DNA of 64,000 nucleotides from NCBI GenBank assembly GCA_964600695.1, contig CAZRKK010000001.1, forward strand, positions 63,043 to 127,042, written 5' to 3'. Of the stretch, positions 5,961-58,855 are shown piece after piece. A model generated the notes under the pieces. The model searched no databases and had not been told where the DNA came from. It was given only the letters and a program-made list of their open reading frames with translations. The number at the start of each line of letters is the position of its first letter. Position 1 is the first letter of the stretch. A program made the position numbers and the translations under genes. This DNA is from an uncultured Candidatus Saccharibacteria bacterium (GTDB taxonomy: Bacteria > Patescibacteriota > Doudnabacteria > UBA920).

Positions 5961-7064
5961 ATGAATCAAAGCCTTTCGGAGCTCTTAACTGAGCTCAATA
6001 ACTTAAACCAGGAAGCTAAGAGCTTAACTAGTAAACTCAATCTCGAACAGAAACAGCAACAGGCTTTAGAACTACAAGATCGCATGCAAGCTGCGGATTT
6101 TTGGTCAGACCAAGAGTCTGCCCAGCAAGTTTCGCAAAGCTATAACTCCATCCAAGATTTTGTGAATTTCTGGACGGCATTGGAAAATAAGATCACAGAG
6201 TTACAAGAACTAATTACTAGCAACACAGATGAATCGGAAGAAACGATTAGCTATCTTAATCAACAAGTTAAAGATTTACAAGAACAATTCAACCAAAACC
6301 GATTAACAGTGATGATGTCCGGCAAATATGATAATCATAACGCGATCTTTGCGTTACACGCCGGAGCTGGTGGTACTGATGCTCAAGACTGGACAGAAAT
6401 TTTGCTCAGACAATTTTTACGTTACGCAGAAAAGCATAATTTAAAAACAGAAATTATAGACCAAAGTAAAGGTTCCGAAGCGGGTATAAAGTCTGTGACG
6501 GTTCATGTTAAAGGATTGAATGCTTACGGATTATTTAAAAGCGAGGCCGGTGTGCATCGCCTTGTTAGACTATCTCCGTTTAACCCAGCTCATACCCGAG
6601 AGACTTCTTTTGCTTTACTAGAACTTATTCCAGAACTTGCCGAACAAGAAAGTTTAAAGTTAGATCCAAAAGATATAGAAATCGAAGCCAACACATCATC
6701 TGGGCATGGCGGCCAGAGTGTGAACACAACATATAGTGCTATTAGGATTACTCATATTCCTACGGGGATCCGGGTAAGTATCCAAAACGAACGAAGCCAA
6801 CATCAAAATAAAGAATTGGCTATGAAGATCTTACTAGGAAAACTCCAAGCCTTAGAGGACAAAAAATTAGCCGAGGAGAAAAAAGAACTTCGCGGCGAAT
6901 TCAAATCGGCCGAGTGGGGAAATCAGATTCGTTCTTATGTTTTGCATCCGTATAAAATGGTTAAAGACCATCGCACTGACTACGAAGAAAGTGACCCCGA
7001 CAGAGTTTTAGATGGTGGTTTAGATAACTTTGTAGAAAAATATTTAGAAAGCCAAATTAAATAG
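5961..7064 (+). CDS. prfB: peptide chain release factor 2, encoded in one uninterrupted frame
   Basis: 367 aa with the SPF tripeptide (RLSPFNPAH) and the GGQ motif (SGHGGQSVNTT). There is no internal +1 frameshift site. Confidence 0.9.
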   Translation: MNQSLSELLTELNNLNQEAKSLTSKLNLEQKQQQALELQDRMQAADFWSDQESAQQVSQSYNSIQDFVNFWTALENKITELQELITSNTDESEETISYLNQQVKDLQEQFNQNRLTVMMSGKYDNHNAIFALHAGAGGTDAQDWTEILLRQFLRYAEKHNLKTEIIDQSKGSEAGIKSVTVHVKGLNAYGLFKSEAGVHRLVRLSPFNPAHTRETSFALLELIPELAEQESLKLDPKDIEIEANTSSGHGGQSVNTTYSAIRITHIPTGIRVSIQNERSQHQNKELAMKILLGKLQALEDKKLAEEKKELRGEFKSAEWGNQIRSYVLHPYKMVKDHRTDYEESDPDRVLDGGLDNFVEKYLESQIK

Positions 7065-49142: not shown

Positions 49143-49748
49143 TTACTCCTCAACCAACCTCGCCTTAACAATATATCTTTTCAAGGCTGTGCCAATTGGG
49201 TAAGAAGTTTGGAGGGTTAAAATGGCCTTGCCGTTAGTTTCTTGGCTCAGTAAATCTGTACGATTCTTTTCGGCCACAAACTTGTCATACACCTTATATG
49301 TATATTTCGTCCCCTCTTTATCAGAAACAATAATAGGAGCACCGATTTCTATTTGAGGAAGTAATGCAAAAACAGTTTTAAAGTTGCCTTTACTAAAAGC
49401 AAAGTCGGAAGAATGACCAAAGATATATGTATTACCTGCCTGCCCTACCTCTGCTGTTCCAGGGAAAAGCACAACTCCATTAACTAAAGCTGTTTGATAA
49501 GCTGTCTCGTTTGCTTCTGTGACAAACTGAATCGGCGCAACTATGTCTAAACTTTCGATAACTAATTGATTTGGTTCGTACTTAATTGGGTTTTCTTTAC
49601 GAAGTTCTTGACGTTGAACCTCTGTAATAAACACCTTACCTAAATGGAACCGAGCTTGCTTAGTAAAGTAAGTGAAGTTTAACAAACCAAACACTAACAA
49701 TCCTAGCACAACAATAATTAATAAATATTTAATAAATTTAATACCCAT
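49143..49748 (-). CDS. sortase-fold protein lacking the catalytic cysteine (TLQTS instead of TLXTC)
   Basis: An N-terminal TM anchor, the conserved His (YIFGHSS) and Arg (RYIVKARL), and a C-terminal ILTLQTSYPIG. The Ser is encoded by TCT (AGA on the plus strand at 49203-49205). The whole protein contains no Cys. Confidence 0.65.
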   Translation of the reverse strand: MGIKFIKYLLIIVVLGLLVFGLLNFTYFTKQARFHLGKVFITEVQRQELRKENPIKYEPNQLVIESLDIVAPIQFVTEANETAYQTALVNGVVLFPGTAEVGQAGNTYIFGHSSDFAFSKGNFKTVFALLPQIEIGAPIIVSDKEGTKYTYKVYDKFVAEKNRTDLLSQETNGKAILTLQTSYPIGTALKRYIVKARLVEE

Positions 49749-49813: not shown

Positions 49814-52800
49814 TTAGTTGTTTTGTTTAGCTATGTATTTTGGTAAAAGAATAATACCAAGAGTAGCTAGCATAACCATTACCACATAAGCAGGAGTTCC
49901 TGTTCGAGGTAACTCTGTAGTAGCACCAAGTACAGTTCCTGTTGTTGGGGTACTTGGGATATTTGTACTATCACCAAGGACTCGTCCAACTGTAGGGTTT
50001 GGTACTTCTGGAGCTGGCCCGCCGCCAGTGCTTCCACCACCGCCAGTGCTTCCACCACCGCCGCCTCGATAGATATTCCCAAAGTCTAGACCAGAAGCAT
50101 CACCAGAATAATTTGGATAAACATCAACTGATGCATTGGCTGTTTTAAACATAAAGTCTGTCCAAGAAGAATCTTTATTAGATTCTAGAGTAACTGCTTC
50201 GCAAGGCCAAATTGCACCACCAATAGCAATGTTGTATTCAGTCAAAACAGGTTCTGTCTCTGCCCAATTAGATTGTAAGACTTCTCTAACTGAGTAACAA
50301 CCAGCTACTAAACCAGTAAATTGATAATTCCCGTTGCTATCAGATATAGTTGAGGTTTCTTCGTTATTTAGAGTATTACTTCCATCCTGGTCAAGGTACA
50401 CAACCCAACCTTCAAGCTCATCTTCTACTTCACCATCATGATCACCATTATTGCTGTTATTATCATGATAAACTGTACCGCTTATCTTGAATCCACCATT
50501 ACCACCACCATCTTCATCATCACGGTTATAGAAGTTTTGACCAGTTTCAATTGAATCAGTAACTAATACTTGATTAGCGCCGTTGTCTGCTGGGGTCATT
50601 TGTGTCCAACCTTCTTGACCAACTTCGCGAACGAAATATGTTCCTGTAGGTAAATCTGCAAATGAATAATTACCATCTTTGTCGGTTTTATCATATGGCT
50701 CATTATCATCAAGTTCACCATTTTTATTTAGGTCCAGATAAATTACCCATCCACCTAATGTGATTGGTGTTAACTCTTCATTGCCAGACTGATATTTATA
50801 CTTTGTTCCTGAGATTCCATTTCCACAAGTTGGGAGTTCTGGCTCATCATTAATAATCTGGGTAAAGATACTAAATAATGATTTACGAACTTTTTCCTCT
50901 TGTCGTTGTACACAAACTTGATGGTTACCAAAATCATTATTGATACTATCTGCGTTAGCAGGGACTACATTTAGACTACCTTCTGGAGCACTTTGTTGCC
51001 ATCCAGTTTGCATACCTTCAACAATAGCAAGATTACCGGTTAGATCAGTCACATCAAAACTATAATTACCGTTGGAATCTGTTGTTGTTGAAGATAAGAC
51101 TTCGAAAATTTCTACATCTAGAGTTCCAGTATTATTACCTGGAGCAATATCATTAATTGCGAAATTAACAGCAGCCCCAGTACCAGTTAATGTTTTCCAA
51201 TAAATATGAGAGCTAGTGTATGGACCCCAGTAAGAAGAGTTGCCATCTATTTGCAGGTCCAATAAGTCTGGACCATATATTTCATAATTCTGAACTAAGT
51301 CAGTCCAATCAGGGTTTAAATTTCGAGATGAATATTGAGCATCGGATAGAATTCCATCGTTAGCGTCATAAGTTCCGGAAGCTTTTACTAAATAGGTAGC
51401 GCCATTGGTTAAAGGCAAGCTATCAACACCTGTAACACTAGTTGAATCAACTTCATACTCTGCTACTTTTTTAGTTAAGTAGATAGTCCAATCTTGAATT
51501 CCATTTTCCCCTTGTTCTCTTTCACCGTCACCATCAAGATCATTCCACTTTGTTCCTGTAGCATGATAAGTAGGCTCTCCTTGGCCAGTTTCATCACCAC
51601 AGTAATTAAAGTCTAGGTTGTAAATTAATCCGGTTGGATTGTTGGTTGGTTGGTATGCCCAGTTCTTTACAGCAAATTTTAGAACATGTGTACCTGGTGT
51701 TAGTGCTAATGGAGAGCTATCAGAAACTACGGCATAATCATTGCTAAATCCTACCTGAACTCCATCTAAGAAAGCAGTTACTTCATTGTCAGCGGTAAAA
51801 TGTAAGATTGCAGGAGAAATGCTTGTTGCCCCGGCAGGAATAGTAAAGGTATGGCTATACAGTCTCCATGTATCAATAGAACCATCCCCACCTGCGCCTG
51901 GTGGATTTGTTGGTTGAGCTGCGCTATTGCTGACCCATACCCCGGACCCCTCTGTTATATCTGGATCATTTTGCGGCCCATCCCATGCACCTGGATGACC
52001 AGTAGGACCAGCTAATACAGCTGGAGCATCAATACCTAATGGGTAATTAGCTTCATCACTTAAATCACTCGGTGCTGTATTTTCCTTTAGACCTTCAAAC
52101 TTAGTAAACATACCACTAGCGATAGCTGGGTCTTGCTCCACACAAGGAGTTAGTGACCCAATATTATACGCGATACAGTAGATATGCTCTGGTTGATTAT
52201 TACCTAAGCTAATATACTCTAGATTATCACCATTTAAAGCGTCGTTAAAACATCGAATTGCGGCAAATTCGTAACCATATTTTTCTTGTTCACTCACCCA
52301 CATTTGCCCGTTAACAATTGCTGACTGCATGGCTGGGTTAAGCGCAGAATCTTCTCCAGAAATAGGAGTTACGAATTCACCATCTTCGGTAGCACCTAGA
52401 ACTTGTGCATCATCACTTGTAAAACTACTCTCATTGGAAACGTTAAACTTCCACCCATCGGCACGAACACAATTAGAGTCCTTGCCAGGGATTTCACTTG
52501 GATTTACCAGACCATTCACTAAAGGTGATGGTAAGAACATCCCGTTATTATAGTTATTAAAGTAAACATAATTACCATTGGTTTCATCAGCAGAGCTTCC
52601 AGACTCGTTCCCTGCAACATCACCATATTCTTCACAGACGACTTTGATTAAATGAAGTTTAGGAATCGGTCGATCACAACCATTTTCACTACATTGGTTC
52701 ACGAGTGTAAATGATTCATTTTGAGTATCAACCATTTTAGTTTCATTCTTTCCAGAAATATTGGTCCAGCCATCCTTCATGATTTCATCTAGTTTATATG

Positions 52801-55702
52801 AGCCAAATGGAACATTTTCGATTGTCACACATCCATCCTGACCTGTGGTGCCAGAATAAACAGGATAAATATCCACAGTCATGGTTCCATTGTTATCACC
52901 AAACCAATCAGGATACTGAGTATTAGTTAATGTATCACCGTCAAAGACGCGGAAATTGACAGTCGAGCCAGTTCCAGAAGTTACTAAACTATATGCATGA
53001 GAAGTAGCATATGGACCCCAAGAAACAAATTGACCATCAACTTGCATTTCTAGTAATCCATTCGGGTAACCACCTTGTGGTCCATCAAGAACCGTAGTCC
53101 AACCATCTGGTGTAGTAAAGCGTGGATCTACAGTTTCAAAACCCCGATTTTGCCATGTACCACTAGCGACAATTAAATAATTCTGACCACTAGTTAAGGT
53201 GTTTGTAGAATTAAAACCTGTAGATGAATTTGAATTTACAGAAACTGTTTCTAGTTTAGGACCCTTTAACATGACTTGCCAGTTAGATAGTGGATTTTGA
53301 TTACTATCCAATTTACAAATTTTTACAGTAGAAACACAGCCTGTGTTACATCGATTGACCAAAGTGAAGGTTTCTTTTGGTTGATCAACAACAGCGGAAG
53401 TGTTTTTCCCTGAGTCGTTGCTCCAACCATCTTTCATAAGTTCATCCAATTTGTATGTGCCGTAATCGATATTTTCGAAAGTCACACAACCGTCTTCACC
53501 AGTAGTACCTTTAATGACAGGATAAATATCCACGGTTAAAGTACCGCTATTATCAGAATAGTTGTTGTCTAAAATTCGGAAACCAATTGAACCTGGTACT
53601 GCTAATGTTTTGAATGCAGCATAATTATGAGAAGCGTTAAAGCTCATTGCCCAATTAAAATTGGCATCATCTACTTGAATACCCAAGTATCCTTCATAGC
53701 CAACTAAATCTAGGTTACGAACCCAAGGCAAATCTGCACCAGAGTAAAAACTTGGGTGAATACCAGCATCACTAGCAATTCTCTTAGAGAAAGCTGCGTC
53801 ACTAATATCGCCTTCACTGCCTGGTCGATAAACATAGGTTCCACTTGCTTCTAATACATAATCACCTGCTGGCAAACTATCAGAAAGAGTGCTTAAACCA
53901 GTAGTAGAGTCAACAGTCACGGAGTCTACCATGTCGCCTTTTAAGAATACACTCCATCCCGATAAAGGATTTTGATGATTGTCTAATTTACAAATTGTAA
54001 CATCAGATTCACAATCTTCTTTTACACTTACGTCATCGACAAAACCACCGAGTGTGTTTCCTTCACCAAGATCGGTAATACTTAAACGAGTTACTCCACT
54101 TGTCGCAGTGAATGAATAAGTATGTTGAGTCCAAACTGTGTTGCTGTTTGATGTGCCGTTTTCTGTAATAGTACCTAAAACGGTTGCACCCATTTTTACC
54201 TGAGTGATATTTTCAGACAAGCCCTGTCCTGGACGAGGTGATGTCCAAAGGCTTACTGTATAGTTGCTTCCAACTTTAGTAATTAAATCTTGAAAAAGAC
54301 TAACTGAAGCATCCTCACTACCACCGCCTGATGGGCCTTCCCAATCTGAATCTAACTCTGTGTACTGAGACCCACTCTTTGGATTCCAACCATTTACACC
54401 TCGGTGAAGCTCGGCTTTAGCTATTGCAGGTGCTCCACTTGGATTAACCCAATCAACACTCCATGCTAAACCGGCAGTACCAGAATCTCGAATATCCCAC
54501 GAATTCCCTATTGCAGGAGATTCAAAGCCACCGTTCGCCACCATTTCGGTACCACAAGGCACTGGATTTTTTAACTTATTTACAACTTTATGTGTACAAG
54601 TATTATTTGGTGAACATACAGGAGACACTGTACCGACAGTACTATCGTCTACTTGCCAACCTGCCGGAAGACCTGTTTCTGTAACAGTAATGTCTTCATC
54701 TGTAAAACTATTAATAGTTTCGTCACAAACTAAAGCAGATTGTTGATTATACTTACATACTATTGTATCTTGTCCTGCGTTTACTGTAATTGTAATATCA
54801 TCTTTATTATCAGGAGCATCAATAACCTGTCCATTTGCATCCTGCCATTCTTTAGAGATAGTAACCGTGGTTGGACATCGCAATACTGCTGAATCATCAT
54901 CTTGAGCAACTTTAAGATCTTGCCCAATTAAACATGGATCCGGGGGTGTAACTGGAATATTACAACCTTTGCCTTGTTGATCTTTTGTATTGTATATAGT
55001 TTGCCCGTCAGTCCAGTTATACCCAGCAAACGAACCACCAGAATATGTGAACGGTGGAATAATATCTCCCCAATCTTCTGTAATTCCAGAGAACCATACA
55101 GGACCTGTGTGAGTAGCATGACCATTTGGTCCCTTCATAATACTATTTACACTAACTTCTAACTCTACATAAGGATTTGTGCCATTATTTTCGTGACAGA
55201 TAACTACCTTTTTGGTCTCATCATTTTCACAAAGTCCATTAACAGAAAGGTAATCTTTGTCATGATCCTCATGATCATCTTCATAGTCTTCCTGTTTCAT
55301 TAACTTTCTTTCATACTTACCATTTTTTTCGTGACAAACAATAACCATTTTACTATCACCTGTACCCTGACCAGGACACTTCTTGTTTTCACCATCAATC
55401 ACAAAATCTGAATCATGAGCATCATGAACACCTACCTCACTCTTCTTCATTTGAAGATTATCCCAAGTTGCGCCGTTATAGTGACAAACTGTGACTTTCT
55501 TGTCGTTATCATTATCCCTGGCAACAGCAGTAGTAGGAATACTAAAACTTGAAAGCACTAACGAAAAAACCGCAACTACCGCTAAACCACGAGCTGTAAA
55601 AGCTTTGATTCTACGGATATTTGCAGTTTTAGGAAAACCTCTCAAAATAGCCACATTTGCCCATAATTGAGATATATTTTTGAAAAACTTGTTTTCTGTC
55701 AT
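49814..55702 (-). CDS. giant (1962 aa) LPxTG-anchored surface protein with internal tandem repeats
   Basis: An N-terminal signal region, then three tandem V-x-V/I-C-H-x-x-NG repeats. Three approximately 200-aa repeats follow (CKLD..QNPLS..., each ending GTTG.DGCVT.EN...KLDE.MKDGW). SdrD/Cna-B-like Asp-rich repeats (DGEREQGENGIQDWTIYL; DDNEPYDKTDKDGNYSF) come next. A Gly-rich tract (GGGGGSTGGGGSTGGG) is present. The C-terminus ends LPRTG + hydrophobic TM + KQNN. Confidence 0.8.
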   Translation of the reverse strand: MTENKFFKNISQLWANVAILRGFPKTANIRRIKAFTARGLAVVAVFSLVLSSFSIPTTAVARDNDNDKKVTVCHYNGATWDNLQMKKSEVGVHDAHDSDFVIDGENKKCPGQGTGDSKMVIVCHEKNGKYERKLMKQEDYEDDHEDHDKDYLSVNGLCENDETKKVVICHENNGTNPYVELEVSVNSIMKGPNGHATHTGPVWFSGITEDWGDIIPPFTYSGGSFAGYNWTDGQTIYNTKDQQGKGCNIPVTPPDPCLIGQDLKVAQDDDSAVLRCPTTVTISKEWQDANGQVIDAPDNKDDITITVNAGQDTIVCKYNQQSALVCDETINSFTDEDITVTETGLPAGWQVDDSTVGTVSPVCSPNNTCTHKVVNKLKNPVPCGTEMVANGGFESPAIGNSWDIRDSGTAGLAWSVDWVNPSGAPAIAKAELHRGVNGWNPKSGSQYTELDSDWEGPSGGGSEDASVSLFQDLITKVGSNYTVSLWTSPRPGQGLSENITQVKMGATVLGTITENGTSNSNTVWTQHTYSFTATSGVTRLSITDLGEGNTLGGFVDDVSVKEDCESDVTICKLDNHQNPLSGWSVFLKGDMVDSVTVDSTTGLSTLSDSLPAGDYVLEASGTYVYRPGSEGDISDAAFSKRIASDAGIHPSFYSGADLPWVRNLDLVGYEGYLGIQVDDANFNWAMSFNASHNYAAFKTLAVPGSIGFRILDNNYSDNSGTLTVDIYPVIKGTTGEDGCVTFENIDYGTYKLDELMKDGWSNDSGKNTSAVVDQPKETFTLVNRCNTGCVSTVKICKLDSNQNPLSNWQVMLKGPKLETVSVNSNSSTGFNSTNTLTSGQNYLIVASGTWQNRGFETVDPRFTTPDGWTTVLDGPQGGYPNGLLEMQVDGQFVSWGPYATSHAYSLVTSGTGSTVNFRVFDGDTLTNTQYPDWFGDNNGTMTVDIYPVYSGTTGQDGCVTIENVPFGSYKLDEIMKDGWTNISGKNETKMVDTQNESFTLVNQCSENGCDRPIPKLHLIKVVCEEYGDVAGNESGSSADETNGNYVYFNNYNNGMFLPSPLVNGLVNPSEIPGKDSNCVRADGWKFNVSNESSFTSDDAQVLGATEDGEFVTPISGEDSALNPAMQSAIVNGQMWVSEQEKYGYEFAAIRCFNDALNGDNLEYISLGNNQPEHIYCIAYNIGSLTPCVEQDPAIASGMFTKFEGLKENTAPSDLSDEANYPLGIDAPAVLAGPTGHPGAWDGPQNDPDITEGSGVWVSNSAAQPTNPPGAGGDGSIDTWRLYSHTFTIPAGATSISPAILHFTADNEVTAFLDGVQVGFSNDYAVVSDSSPLALTPGTHVLKFAVKNWAYQPTNNPTGLIYNLDFNYCGDETGQGEPTYHATGTKWNDLDGDGEREQGENGIQDWTIYLTKKVAEYEVDSTSVTGVDSLPLTNGATYLVKASGTYDANDGILSDAQYSSRNLNPDWTDLVQNYEIYGPDLLDLQIDGNSSYWGPYTSSHIYWKTLTGTGAAVNFAINDIAPGNNTGTLDVEIFEVLSSTTTDSNGNYSFDVTDLTGNLAIVEGMQTGWQQSAPEGSLNVVPANADSINNDFGNHQVCVQRQEEKVRKSLFSIFTQIINDEPELPTCGNGISGTKYKYQSGNEELTPITLGGWVIYLDLNKNGELDDNEPYDKTDKDGNYSFADLPTGTYFVREVGQEGWTQMTPADNGANQVLVTDSIETGQNFYNRDDEDGGGNGGFKISGTVYHDNNSNNGDHDGEVEDELEGWVVYLDQDGSNTLNNEETSTISDSNGNYQFTGLVAGCYSVREVLQSNWAETEPVLTEYNIAIGGAIWPCEAVTLESNKDSSWTDFMFKTANASVDVYPNYSGDASGLDFGNIYRGGGGGSTGGGGSTGGGPAPEVPNPTVGRVLGDSTNIPSTPTTGTVLGATTELPRTGTPAYVVMVMLATLGIILLPKYIAKQNN

Positions 55703-55785: not shown

Positions 55786-55869
55786 TTGAGTATTAACAGA
55801 TAAAGCTATGATTAGATTAATTATAAACCTCGCACAAATAAAAGGCAAATCGGGAAAAAGCAAACAAAA

Positions 55870-55896
55870 AAGGCCTAGACTAAATGTCTAGACCTT
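55870..55896 (-). terminator. hairpin GGCCTAGAC-TAAAT-GTCTAGACC with T-run on the minus strand, downstream of ORF 55916-57019
   Basis: 9-bp stem with one mismatch. The plus-strand AAAAAA upstream gives a U-tract on the minus strand. Confidence 0.5.
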
Positions 55897-55915: not shown

Positions 55916-57019
55916 TTACTGCTTCTTAGGGTTGATTTTAAGAATCAAACCCAGCACCATCAGGTCCGATGGTGAAGTTTTTACTTTACTGGAGTGCTCA
56001 AGCCTAGCTAGTTTTTTCTCCAGAGAAAGTTCAATGTTAATCAAAACACTTTTAACCATATTGTTTTCTCTGGTCAAAGCCATAGGTTTACGATCTACAA
56101 CCAAAAATTGATTGTCGATTATATATGGACTTAATTCACCAGCGACCTTACTCAATGATAAGAAAATATTTCTATTTGTATTAACACCAGCTTTCGCTAT
56201 CCCAGCACCAGACAATGTCCCGATTATTCGGCAACCCTTGGTTTCGTAAACTCGTTTAGCAATCCTGCCCTTCTGAACATTGAGCCTTTCGAAACCGATA
56301 ATTACATAATGACTGGGATTAACATACCGATCTATAAAATCAACCAACTTTCCCCATTGATACAGATCGAGAATACTTCCTAACTCTCGGAATATACCCG
56401 TAGGTGCATTACGAACCAAATCACCAGCTAAATAACTAAGCTCATTTGGTCTTAGCCGGCCGGGTTTTTTGGACGATCCAGATAATCTGATACTAAGGAG
56501 GTCCAAAGATTTAACTCCGTACAAGTTTGAAGCAAAAACATCATTATTGGTTGATCGATTATATATCTCGACACCAGCAGAAGCTATGTACTTCATCAAA
56601 TTGGTATTGATCTCAGCCAGCTTCTCCACTCCATGACCGCGAAACTCGGAAGATTTTTGTAGGCGTTCAACCTCAGCACGTAAGCCTTGATTGATACCTT
56701 TTAACTTCTGCACCTCTTCCGAATCGGCCCTCTTTTGAATATTGCGTTCCTGACGGAACTCATTTAGAGCTTCTTTGAATTGCTCCACGTCCTTAATAGC
56801 CGTGTGCGCAGCATTAAAGTGTTGAGAAATATCTTTCCTTTCGGTTCGATCTTCGTGCTTTATTGCGGCCAAAGTCTGAGCCGTTCTTAATGCCAACTTA
56901 TGATATTCATCCTCGGTTAGCTTAAGTTTTAAGATGGAGTAATCCCACCCAATTACCTCTAAAGGATTTTTGGATACAATTACTCCGTCCGAATTTTGCA
57001 ACGCTGTTACAGTGGTCAT
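55916..57019 (-). CDS. hypothetical protein (N-terminal coiled-coil + C-terminal globular domain), second gene of orphan two-gene operon
   Basis: 367-aa ORF with no recognisable catalytic motif. Its start overlaps the upstream ORF's stop by 4 nt. Confidence 0.5.
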   Translation of the reverse strand: MTTVTALQNSDGVIVSKNPLEVIGWDYSILKLKLTEDEYHKLALRTAQTLAAIKHEDRTERKDISQHFNAAHTAIKDVEQFKEALNEFRQERNIQKRADSEEVQKLKGINQGLRAEVERLQKSSEFRGHGVEKLAEINTNLMKYIASAGVEIYNRSTNNDVFASNLYGVKSLDLLSIRLSGSSKKPGRLRPNELSYLAGDLVRNAPTGIFRELGSILDLYQWGKLVDFIDRYVNPSHYVIIGFERLNVQKGRIAKRVYETKGCRIIGTLSGAGIAKAGVNTNRNIFLSLSKVAGELSPYIIDNQFLVVDRKPMALTRENNMVKSVLINIELSLEKKLARLEHSSKVKTSPSDLMVLGLILKINPKKQ

Positions 57020-57681
57020 AAATTATACCTCTCGCGCAGATCTTCCCAAGTGATGTTTTGATACATCTCCTTGCGCTCTGTAAAGTCCATTTCCCGGATG
57101 CGTTCGACATAATCCGTCCCTAGATAGGAAATCGAAACTCCTCTATCCATGTCTGCCCAAGCACAACGCACTAAGGCTAACACTGCTTGACGCAGGACAT
57201 TTCTATCAATCGCAGCATCGGGCATGAAGAACAATTCTCGAATATCTTCCAAGTACCCGTAAAGATCCGAGATCAAAGATTCAGCTGAATCGCCAAACAC
57301 AATAACCAAAGCCACGGCTGTGGGTTTATTTATCTCCAAGCCGTCAAACTCTCGTGCCGTCGGGCCGTTGAGTTCCAAAGCGATAACCAATTCGTTCCGA
57401 ATCTTATCGGCTTTGTTGGCGACCAAATTTTCGCCCACACTTACCCATTCATCGTCGCCGTCTCGTAACCGGTTTGGACACGAAATGACTTCCAACATCT
57501 TGGCACAATCCTGAACGTTAAGCTTGTAGTCAACCGCCAAGCCAAAATAGATATTTTGAGCGATTGCATCAGGCAAATACTTCTCCAGGTTTTTTTCGAT
57601 CGTTGCAGGCTTAATACCTAAACCATAACCAATTTTGATGATGGCCAAATGCCGCTCATCACTAACAATTAATTTTTTCAT
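57016..57681 (-). CDS. hypothetical acidic cytoplasmic protein, first gene of orphan two-gene operon
   Basis: The ATG lies at 57681, preceded by a GAGGGAAAT RBS. The protein is 222 aa with no recognisable motif. The ORF-track start at 57750 is likely too early. Confidence 0.5.
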   Translation of the reverse strand: MKKLIVSDERHLAIIKIGYGLGIKPATIEKNLEKYLPDAIAQNIYFGLAVDYKLNVQDCAKMLEVISCPNRLRDGDDEWVSVGENLVANKADKIRNELVIALELNGPTAREFDGLEINKPTAVALVIVFGDSAESLISDLYGYLEDIRELFFMPDAAIDRNVLRQAVLALVRCAWADMDRGVSISYLGTDYVERIREMDFTERKEMYQNITWEDLRERYNL

Positions 57682-57771
57682 ATTTCCCTCTTCTTCAGTT
57701 GTAATAGAACAAAGCAAAGAATAACACGTTTTCTGTTTTCTGTCAACCAAATATCCATATAAACATTGGTC

Positions 57772-57812
57772 AAAAAAAACAGTGGAACCAAATCTTGGTA
57801 TCCACTGTTTTT
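57772..57812 (-). terminator. strong rho-independent terminator after rpsI (AACAGTGGA...TCCACTGTT + T8 on the minus strand)
   Basis: Perfect 9-bp stem. The plus-strand AAAAAAAA before it becomes a U8 tract on the minus strand. Confidence 0.75.
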
Positions 57813-57852: not shown

Positions 57853-58422
57853 TTAACGTTTTGCCCATTGAGGAGCGCGACGAGCGCCACGCAAACCTGG
57901 CTTTTTACGTTCCTTTTTACGGTCATCACGAGTGAGGAATCCATTCTTCTTAAGAACGTTTTGTAAATCAGCATTTAGTGTAGCTAAAGCTTGAGCAACA
58001 CCATGACGGACTGCTTCTACCTGAGACATGCGTCCACCACCAGCAACGTGAGAAGTAAAATAGTATTCACCAAGTAATCCACTCACAGCTAACGGACGTA
58101 AAGCTGTATCTTGTTGAGGTTTTTCGGAAAAATAAACTTCCAAAGCTTTCTTGTTAACAATGTTTTCGCCACTACCAGCAAACATCCGAACATTGGCGAT
58201 TGCAGTCTTACGACGACCTGTAGCAAAAATATAACGGCCAGTAGCTAACTTTTTGTGGTCAGCAGTCTTAGCAGCTTTTGCAATTGGATTAGCAACAGCT
58301 TCTGTTTCTGTAACTTCTTTAGCAACCACAGCTTTTTTAGCTACTGGGGCTTTCTTAACAACAGCCTTCTTGACTGCTGGCTTGTCTGCTACTTTTTTAG
58401 TTGTAGGTTTCTTAGTTTCCAT
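57853..58422 (-). CDS. rpsI: 30S ribosomal protein S9 with Lys/Ala-rich N-terminal extension
   Basis: The C-terminal part ...GGGRMSQVEAVRHGVAQAL...RDDRKKERKKPGLRGARRAPQWAKR is the S9 signature. The N-terminal approximately 60 aa are AKK/KKA repeats. The start METKK sits at a TAAtATG junction with the rplM stop. Confidence 0.88.
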   Translation of the reverse strand: METKKPTTKKVADKPAVKKAVVKKAPVAKKAVVAKEVTETEAVANPIAKAAKTADHKKLATGRYIFATGRRKTAIANVRMFAGSGENIVNKKALEVYFSEKPQQDTALRPLAVSGLLGEYYFTSHVAGGGRMSQVEAVRHGVAQALATLNADLQNVLKKNGFLTRDDRKKERKKPGLRGARRAPQWAKR

Positions 58423-58423
58423 A

Positions 58424-58855
58424 TTATTTAATCTCTTTATCAATCTTATAAGTGTGCTTATCGCCCTTAATTAACTTTAAGCGAGAAACTAACTTTTTAC
58501 GAAACTTAATGTCATCAATCATAGAAAATACTGCGCGTTGTAAAACCTTCTCTGGGTTACGAATATTTTCGTCACGAAGAGTTTTGGTTTTTAAACCACC
58601 TAAGTAACCAGAGTGATGGTAGTACTTCTTTTGTTCAACTTTGCGACCAGTGAATTTAAGCTTATCAACATTAATAGCTACAACAAAGTCACCCATATCC
58701 ATATGAGGAGTGAAGTTACGCTTGTGCTTACCACGGAGCAAGTTAGCAATTTGAGTTGCTACACGACCCATTGGCAAACCACTAGCATCAATTTGATGCC
58801 AAGTGCGAGTTACTTCGCTAACTTTTGGGAGTGAAATTTTTTGATTCTTTAACAT
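58424..58855 (-). CDS. rplM: 50S ribosomal protein L13
   Basis: ...TWHQIDASGLPMGRVATQIANLLRGKHKRNFTPHMDMGDFVVAINVDKLKFTG... is the L13 signature. Confidence 0.9.
   Translation of the reverse strand: MLKNQKISLPKVSEVTRTWHQIDASGLPMGRVATQIANLLRGKHKRNFTPHMDMGDFVVAINVDKLKFTGRKVEQKKYYHHSGYLGGLKTKTLRDENIRNPEKVLQRAVFSMIDDIKFRKKLVSRLKLIKGDKHTYKIDKEIK

Follow-up and report, generated by a model that had tools for sequence, protein, structure and literature searches.

A gene pair downstream of rpsI in a Saccharibacteria-lineage genome predicted to encode a class C J-domain protein and its conserved partner

Class C (type III) J-domain proteins join a J-domain, a unit of about 63 residues that activates Hsp70/DnaK chaperones and is made of helix I, helix II, an H-x-D loop and helix III, to an unrelated targeting region, and have no glycine/phenylalanine-rich (G/F) region, zinc finger or DnaJ_C domain. 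In Escherichia coli, the cbpA-cbpM operon encodes a J-domain co-chaperone together with its MerR-like modulator, CbpM. Here we describe two genes, A and B, located on the minus strand of a stretch of 64,000 nucleotides from contig CAZRKK010000001.1 of an uncultured Candidatus Saccharibacteria bacterium (hereafter, the window). An earlier reading of these letters (the original prediction) had presented the pair as an orphan operon of unknown function. From family profiles, we assign B to the class C J-domain proteins and propose that A is its obligate partner.

The product of B resembles class C proteins in the succession of its helices around the H-x-D loop, which is homologous by profile, and in lacking the three regions mentioned above. 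It differs from them in the middle residue of the HPD motif, which varies in the B family (Glu in the window B), in an insert of 9 residues between helices I and II, in the obligate partner gene upstream, and in a coiled coil and a C-terminal domain that match no known family. The pair is also analogous to CbpA-CbpM, likewise a two-gene operon in which a J-domain protein is accompanied by a small partner that is not an enzyme, and by this analogy A could modulate B as CbpM does CbpA. However, A has no detectable similarity to CbpM and is twice its size, the gene order is reversed, and B lacks the class B C-terminal domains of CbpA. Unlike HscB/Hsc20, the partner of IscU and HscA, B has no HSCB_C domain, no isc context and no dedicated Hsp70 nearby. 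With polymorphic toxin and immune-sensor loci, B shares a conserved N-terminal part followed by a sharply bounded, diverged and recombining C-terminal domain, but it has neither a secretion signal nor a toxin domain nor a downstream immunity gene, and its alleles are homologous (48% identical) and both under purifying selection. No description of such a J-protein/partner pair was found in the literature searched. Likewise, neither A nor the coiled coil and C-terminal domain of B have a model in Pfam (2025), NCBIfam (2026), PADLOC or PHROGs, or a solved relative. J-domain proteins with unassigned C-terminal domains are common, and in that respect B is ordinary; what we consider new is a class C J-domain family whose obligate partner was undescribed and whose putative client-side domain recombines.

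The J-domain of protein B

Reading of the B alignment gave the first hint of a J-domain, in the form of the segments NPLEVIGW and F..A..A...IKD and of an invariant H55-E56-D57 (Table 1). An exhaustive search with a B profile against 1.84 billion cluster representatives (E value, E, <= 1e-3) returned 108 proteins of about 350-475 amino acids, nearly all of which aligned to residues 17-125 of B only. These relatives share the pattern NPLxxIG(L/F)s..IL.LGL...H-x-D with the motif spacing fixed at 30 residues, and the tripeptide, read in 111 sequences, is HPD in 71, HED in 19, HSD in 9 and HTD in 4. Among 82 relatives, H55 never changes and D57 is conserved in at least 90%. When these 82 proteins were scanned individually, the Pfam family DnaJ (PF00226) was the sole recurrent match (28 members, best E of 2.3e-5), whereas any other family was matched by at most 3 of them. 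A word-indexed search with the alignment of these 82 proteins gave, among the candidates listed, known members only.

The profile built from the 82 sequences was also compared with the PDB, where it matched 1BQZ, the nuclear magnetic resonance structure of the J-domain from E. coli DnaJ (E 4.6e-5), with HPD aligned on HPD, as well as about 35 further J-domain structures, among them the CbpA J-domain of 3UCS, a complex with CbpM. A smaller profile of 10 HPD-type sequences alone gave no PDB J-domain at E <= 0.01. The window B scored 82 bits against a hidden Markov model built solely from 75 distant members, so its homology to the HPD-bearing proteins is not in doubt. Other J-domain features are kept: the motif is followed by a basic residue (HEDR in B, HPDR in E. 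coli DnaJ) and helix III shows the pattern F..A..A...L.D. The helices predicted by AlphaFold2 (AF2) agree with the J-domain topology, and helices I and II are separated by an additional short helix formed by the insert of 9 residues, both in a poor model of B.

We found no G/F linker after the J-domain of B (G+F fraction of 0.11), no CxxCxGxG zinc-finger motif in this protein, which has a single Cys, and no DnaJ_C match in the 82 relatives. Through the family profile, and in that sense transitively, B is placed in the J-domain superfamily outside classes A and B of DnaJ; since its J-domain comes without G/F linker, zinc finger or DnaJ_C, it is classified as a class C protein, with a predicted architecture of a J-domain bearing HED, a coiled coil and a C-terminal domain. 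HPD has been called characteristically conserved in a published study, which reports HPE for about 1% of J-domains, and a family in which the middle residue of the motif varies freely is unusual. The B family therefore offers a natural way of testing what Hsp70 activation really demands of a J-domain, given that P, E, S and T are tolerated, H and D are kept and an insert is present.

The statement of the original prediction that neither protein shows an assignable motif is thus not correct for B, whose N-terminus is a J-domain (DnaJ/Hsp40) by family profile. The remote-homology searches that it had recommended yielded this domain, and no family for A or for the C-terminal domain of B; a well-known housekeeping family was accordingly found for one domain of B only.

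The partner gene and the exchangeable C-terminal domain

Word-indexed searches covering 5.8 billion proteins recovered five relatives of B and three of A, none of them carrying a name or a Pfam domain, and on the contigs of these relatives the gene order rplM, rpsI, A, B, giant LPXTG surface protein, sortase and HU is kept. Codon-level comparison with relatives of the Saccharibacteria lineage gave ratios of nonsynonymous to synonymous substitution rates (dN/dS) of 0.07-0.14 for A and both halves of B; values for A alone were 0.11-0.14 and those for the N-terminal part of B 0.06-0.11. Because of these ratios and of the homologues in other genomes, A and B are both real protein-coding genes under purifying selection.

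The original prediction had also suggested testing co-occurrence in other genomes. In 11 of the 11 contexts with readable DNA, a homologue of A lies directly upstream of the homologue of B, with hmmsearch E values of 8e-10 to 9e-37, whereas the other neighbours, used as controls, gave E > 0.1. The contexts studied comprise five of the Saccharibacteria lineage (L001, L002, L003, L004 and L017) and a series of distant ones, namely L006 (58% GC), L007 (49% GC), L008-L011, which come from one organism and in which the pair adjoins a type IV pilus cluster, L012, a contig of 811 kb, L013/L014 and L015/L016. Together, they span 37-58% GC. A further contig, outside the 11 with readable DNA, has at the position of A a gene of 245 amino acids without Pfam matches. 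Spacing between the two genes goes from an overlap of 4 nucleotides, the commonest arrangement, to a gap of 69 nucleotides, and the ATGA overlap is retained in the window, L001, L003, L006, L007, L010 and L017. Neighbouring genes code for ribosomal proteins, a release factor, IF3, EF-Ts, tRNA synthetases, purine synthesis enzymes, a penicillin-binding protein, GAPDH and type IV pilus components, and no integrase, transposase or phage gene was present near the pair in the contexts read. The proximity of ribosomal protein genes is expected by chance in such small genomes. Within the Saccharibacteria lineage the synteny is vertical; small-genome features, type IV pili, a diversity-generating retroelement and the contig of 811 kb suggest that the pair extends beyond it, probably across the candidate phyla radiation (CPR)/Patescibacteria. 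A scan of genome contigs with the narrow profile gave a single Saccharibacteria locus, and a metagenome scan gave one organism four times. CPR/Patescibacteria genomes are rich in conserved genes without an assigned function, and this pair becomes a testable hypothesis among them.

Some particularities of individual contexts were recorded. A radical-SAM gene, considered as a third conserved member on the basis of L004 and L013, was rejected, as only the generic core is shared (21% identity). In L002, an additional gene (2031-2870) for a protein of 279 amino acids, with a signal peptide and Asn/Ser/Asp-rich low complexity, stands between rpsI and the A homologue; it is unrelated to A (E 0.4), and its presence indicates that the rpsI-to-A junction tolerates insertions. 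The B homologue of L011 (1180-2355) ends earlier than that of the otherwise identical L010 (391 versus 418 amino acids), from which it diverges after ...PGRA, suggesting a frameshift or an assembly variant. About 6 kb from the pair, L013 carries (1-1548) a reverse transcriptase (RVT_1) and a bAvd-like gene beside a gene for a Lcl_C-domain protein, a cluster that looks like a diversity-generating retroelement and that we do not link to A and B.

Protein A is predicted to be all-alpha. Its AF2 model is poor, with a predicted local distance difference test (pLDDT) of 47, save for an N-terminus of four helices (pLDDT 66-87). Profiles of up to 10 A sequences matched nothing in Pfam or the PDB (best PDB E of 0.13), and no NCBIfam or PADLOC match was obtained for A. 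Candidate relationships with Ner-type helix-turn-helix proteins (E 0.71, not reproduced with a larger profile), with the kleisin N-terminal domain (E 0.2-0.5, not significant) and with designed helical repeats (matches not significant) were discarded. The near-invariant residues of A are limited to P25, P37, Y45 and L125, and these positions do not look catalytic. All A proteins are acidic, with isoelectric points (pI) of 4.6-5.8, while 74 of the 82 B proteins have a pI above 8 (median of 9.2). No transmembrane segment was found in either family.

In B, the J-domain is followed by a long central helix, or coiled coil, through part of which, up to about residue 125, the relatives still align, and which probably dimerises B or acts as a spacer. 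The C-terminal domain (residues ~150-367) is predicted to be alpha/beta and evolves fast. Coiled coil and C-terminal domain gave no match to a family in Pfam, NCBIfam or the PDB. In the family as a whole, the C-terminal part has changed far more rapidly than the J-domain. Outside the latter, P206 and G267 are the only near-invariant residues, and no conserved polar or catalytic-type residue was detected in the C-terminal domain. As catalytic-type conservation is absent elsewhere in A and B, the pair has no recognisable 'active' element other than the J-domain.

Comparison of the window with L003 in bins of 200 nucleotides over 8.2 kb showed 88-100% identity, mostly 95-100%, except at 56713..55935. 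In bins of 60 nucleotides, one break lies near 56620, where the coiled coil ends (residues ~135-141), and the other at the stop codon of B. Between these two sequences, residues 1-140 of B had a synonymous distance (dS) of 0.21 with a dN/dS of 0.11, A had 0.28 and 0.11, and residues 141 to the end of B had a saturated dS of 3.7 with a dN/dS of 0.12. Two types of C-terminal allele, about 48% identical in protein, were distinguished. Type I is present in the window and in L017 (94% identical over the C-terminal part), as well as in P0001 and P0002 (98% identical overall); type II is present in L003 and L001. The alleles of L017, L003 and L001 do not follow the relationships seen in the flanks (the N-terminal part of B is 96% identical between the window and L003, and 91% between the window and L017), and the strains that exchange them are otherwise about 97% identical. 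Judged from these comparisons, the block is an old and diverged allele acquired through homologous recombination and not the product of local positive selection, and the C-terminal domain of B behaves like an exchangeable specificity module. A remains about 95% identical while the C-terminal domain differs, and does not co-vary with it; for this reason its contact with B, if any, is most likely on the conserved half formed by the J-domain and the coiled coil.

Proposed function and alternative explanations

On balance, we lean towards the reading that A and B constitute a conserved chromosomal module in which B would be a specialised DnaK co-chaperone and A its obligate partner. According to this proposal, the J-domain of B would dock on ATP-bound DnaK and trigger ATP hydrolysis, DnaK would then clamp onto whatever B presents, and the C-terminal domain of B would select the target or the location. 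Acidic A would be made in step with basic B by translational coupling and would bind it as a stoichiometric partner, in the role of a dedicated client, adaptor or modulator. The stimulation of DnaK, the client-selecting role of the C-terminal domain and the process served are inferred. Several observations weigh against this proposal. The window B has HED where the J-domain superfamily is defined by an invariant HPD, and J-like proteins without HPD, such as Tim16, do not stimulate Hsp70. The window B itself has no Pfam DnaJ match, nor did the first 83 residues of three clade members, scanned by themselves, give one at E <= 10, and hhalign of a 6-sequence profile with the J-domain of E. coli DnaJ, although it aligned HED on HPD, was not significant (E 0.13). 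The 64-kb window contains no dnaK motif, and no dnaK gene adjoins any of the 11 loci. A complex between A and B is suggested only by gene pairing and charge, and the AF2 models (pLDDT of 50 for B and 47 for A) are too weak to give the folds of A and of the C-terminal domain of B.

In this Saccharibacteria clade, the HED tripeptide and the insert of 9 residues could instead mark a degenerate J-like scaffold that no longer activates Hsp70, A and B forming then a complex with a structural or regulatory role independent of DnaK, such as a cytoskeletal or assembly factor of the coiled-coil type. We regard this as rather unlikely, since H55 and D57 are kept and the middle residue alone varies (P, E, S, T), a pattern which suggests a maintained interface rather than decay; moreover, the motif is still followed by a basic residue, helix III retains its pattern, and the N-terminal part of B is under strong purifying selection. 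A more specific version of the co-chaperone proposal, drawn by analogy with CbpA-CbpM, would have basic B use its coiled coil and C-terminal domain to bind the nucleoid or nucleic acid besides serving DnaK, with acidic A as a dedicated inhibitor or modulator that masks the J-domain or the nucleic-acid surface. It would agree with the conserved charge complementarity of the two families, with the tight stoichiometric coupling suggested by the ATGA overlap in the window and in the loci of six relatives, with the constancy of A despite the C-terminal swap, and with the E. coli precedent, the J-domain of which is among the profile matches. However, A shows no similarity to any PDB chain at E <= 0.1, CbpM (3UCS) included, the gene order and the missing DnaJ_C domains separate the pair from cbpA-cbpM, and no nucleic-acid-binding motif was detected, the Ner-type hint not having been reproduced; taken together, this version seems quite improbable.

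The original prediction had considered the pair typical of accessory systems (toxin-antitoxin, defence or stress modules). In such a module, whether of toxin-antitoxin, abortive-infection or polymorphic-toxin-like type, B would be an effector with a variable C-terminal domain and A its neutraliser, as the compact insulated operon, the acidic-basic pair and a dimorphic C-terminal domain recombining among near-identical strains, as in polymorphic toxins or immune sensors, might suggest. Nevertheless, the window A and B had no match in direct comparisons with Pfam, NCBIfam, PADLOC and PHROGs, no toxin or antitoxin family was matched in the first three of these, and ten distant B relatives gave against PADLOC just a chance-level LmuB (E 0.063). 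Relatives were equally absent from 50,697 phage records and 72,556 plasmids (tblastn) and from IMG/VR, and the pair occupies a syntenic position among housekeeping neighbours devoid of integrases and transposases. The putative 'immunity' gene A lies upstream, is 95% identical and does not co-vary with the variable domain, and no gene stands between B and its terminator. Finally, the C-terminal domain has no conserved polar or catalytic residues, both of its alleles are under purifying and not positive selection, and neither protein has a signal peptide or a transmembrane segment. We consider a toxin-antitoxin or defence function very unlikely, and of the earlier suggestion only the stress module survives, loosely, in the sense of an Hsp70 co-chaperone.

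Two deeply diverged client-side alleles among near-identical Saccharibacteria, next to a variable giant surface protein, point to a strain-specific interaction. In an extension of the co-chaperone proposal that we put forward as decidedly speculative and improbable, the pair would be a module for chaperone-coupled sensing or targeting, hitherto unrecognised, in small-genome and probably CPR/Patescibacteria bacteria: the dimorphic C-terminal domain would recognise a fast-evolving partner (a phage protein, a host-derived factor or the adjoining adhesin) and the relaxed H-x-D J-domain would hand it to DnaK, Hsp70 serving as the effector arm of strain-specific recognition and not in general proteostasis.

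Organisation of the locus and neighbouring genes

Genes A and B lie 3' of a block of ribosomal protein and rpoA genes (rpsM, rpsK, rpsD, rpoA, rplQ, rplM and rpsI), named through the Pfam labels of the syntenic L003 genes. The stop codon of rpsI is at 57853, and a hairpin followed by eight U residues and then a promoter-like site separate it from A (Table 1). The hairpin has stems of 7 and 5 base pairs that contain G/C and are lengthened by A/U pairs, folds with -20.5 kcal/mol (z = -3.98; 1 of 200 shuffled sequences as stable) and is identical in L003; owing to an A-tract upstream of it, it may act in both directions. The promoter-like site, predicted in a consensus scan, has 10 of 12 consensus matches, and its -35 box and TG-extended -10 are retained in L003. 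The terminator after B folds with -18 kcal/mol (z = -4.18). The stop codon of A and the start codon of B share four nucleotides (ATGA), and the two genes are presumably co-transcribed. The compact, insulated two-gene operon downstream of rpsI, with a U8 terminator before it, a hairpin terminator behind it, its own promoter region and an overlap of 4 nucleotides, was thus found as originally described. As for the proteins, A is acidic as had been stated, with one residue less than the 222 given; the 367 residues of B were confirmed, and its coiled coil, placed earlier at the N-terminus, is central.

Table 1. Coordinates of the features of the A-B locus in the window.
Feature	Position	Strand	Details
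Gene A	57016..57681	-	ORF (open reading frame) with ATG start and GAGGG Shine-Dalgarno sequence 5 nt upstream; 221 aa (222 codons including stop), pI 4.72
Gene B	55916..57019	-	ORF; 367 aa, pI 9.59; GAGAGG upstream of start
Predicted J-domain of B, residues 17-77	56789..56971	-	KNPLEVIGW...KHEDR...FNAAHTAIKD; 9-residue insert between helix I and helix II
H55-E56-D57 of B	56849..56857	-	Codons CAC GAA GAT, from translation; canonical HPD position
Central long helix/coiled coil of B, residues 78-148	56576..56788	-	AF2, helices 78-123 and 130-148; weak coiled-coil family matches
Dimorphic cassette of B, residues ~135-362	55935..56620	-	56-74% nucleotide identity to L003; flanks 88-100%
Intrinsic terminator of rplM-rpsI	57812..57772	-	Hairpin AAAAACAGUGGA-U-ACCAA/GAU/UUGGU-UCCACUGUUUUU, then U8
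Promoter-like site of A-B	57746..57718	-	TTGACA, 17-nt spacer, TGnTATTCT (extended -10); between the rpsI terminator and A
Intrinsic terminator after B	55896..55870 (also given as 55896..55860)	-	Terminator scan; 11-bp stem AAGGUCUAGAC/GUCUAGGCCUU, then U-rich tail/T-tract

Directly downstream of B, a gene on the same strand (49814-55702) codes for a sortase substrate of 1962 amino acids, a protein whose N-terminus has a signal or transmembrane segment and whose C-terminus has an LPRTG motif, a hydrophobic stretch and a basic tail; the sortase gene comes next (49143-49748, minus strand). Nucleotide identity to the L001 counterpart is about 70-79%, with unalignable parts, and in L002 the protein is replaced by a SdrD_B/SpaA-like protein of 1515 amino acids. 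The LPRTG protein probably serves the epibiont as a variable adhesin for attachment to its host. On the other side of the pair, the S9 gene (57853-58443, minus strand) encodes an N-terminal extension of about 60 Lys/Ala/Val-rich residues (KKPTTKKVADKPAVKKAVVKKAPVAKKAVV...) which resembles histone H1 tails. In the window, this ORF begins at a TTG and overlaps rplM by 20 nucleotides, whereas the gene calls of L003 and L017 (189 amino acids) start at an internal METKKP.

An Rfam scan of the 64 kb at gathering thresholds gave no tRNA, rRNA, riboswitch or ribosomal-protein leader, nor any other RNA family. Many bacteria carry a programmed +1 frameshift in the gene for release factor 2; the release-factor-2-like gene of the window (5961-7064, plus strand), with SPF and GGQ motifs, is a single uninterrupted ORF of 367 amino acids, the same length as B by coincidence, the two proteins being unrelated.

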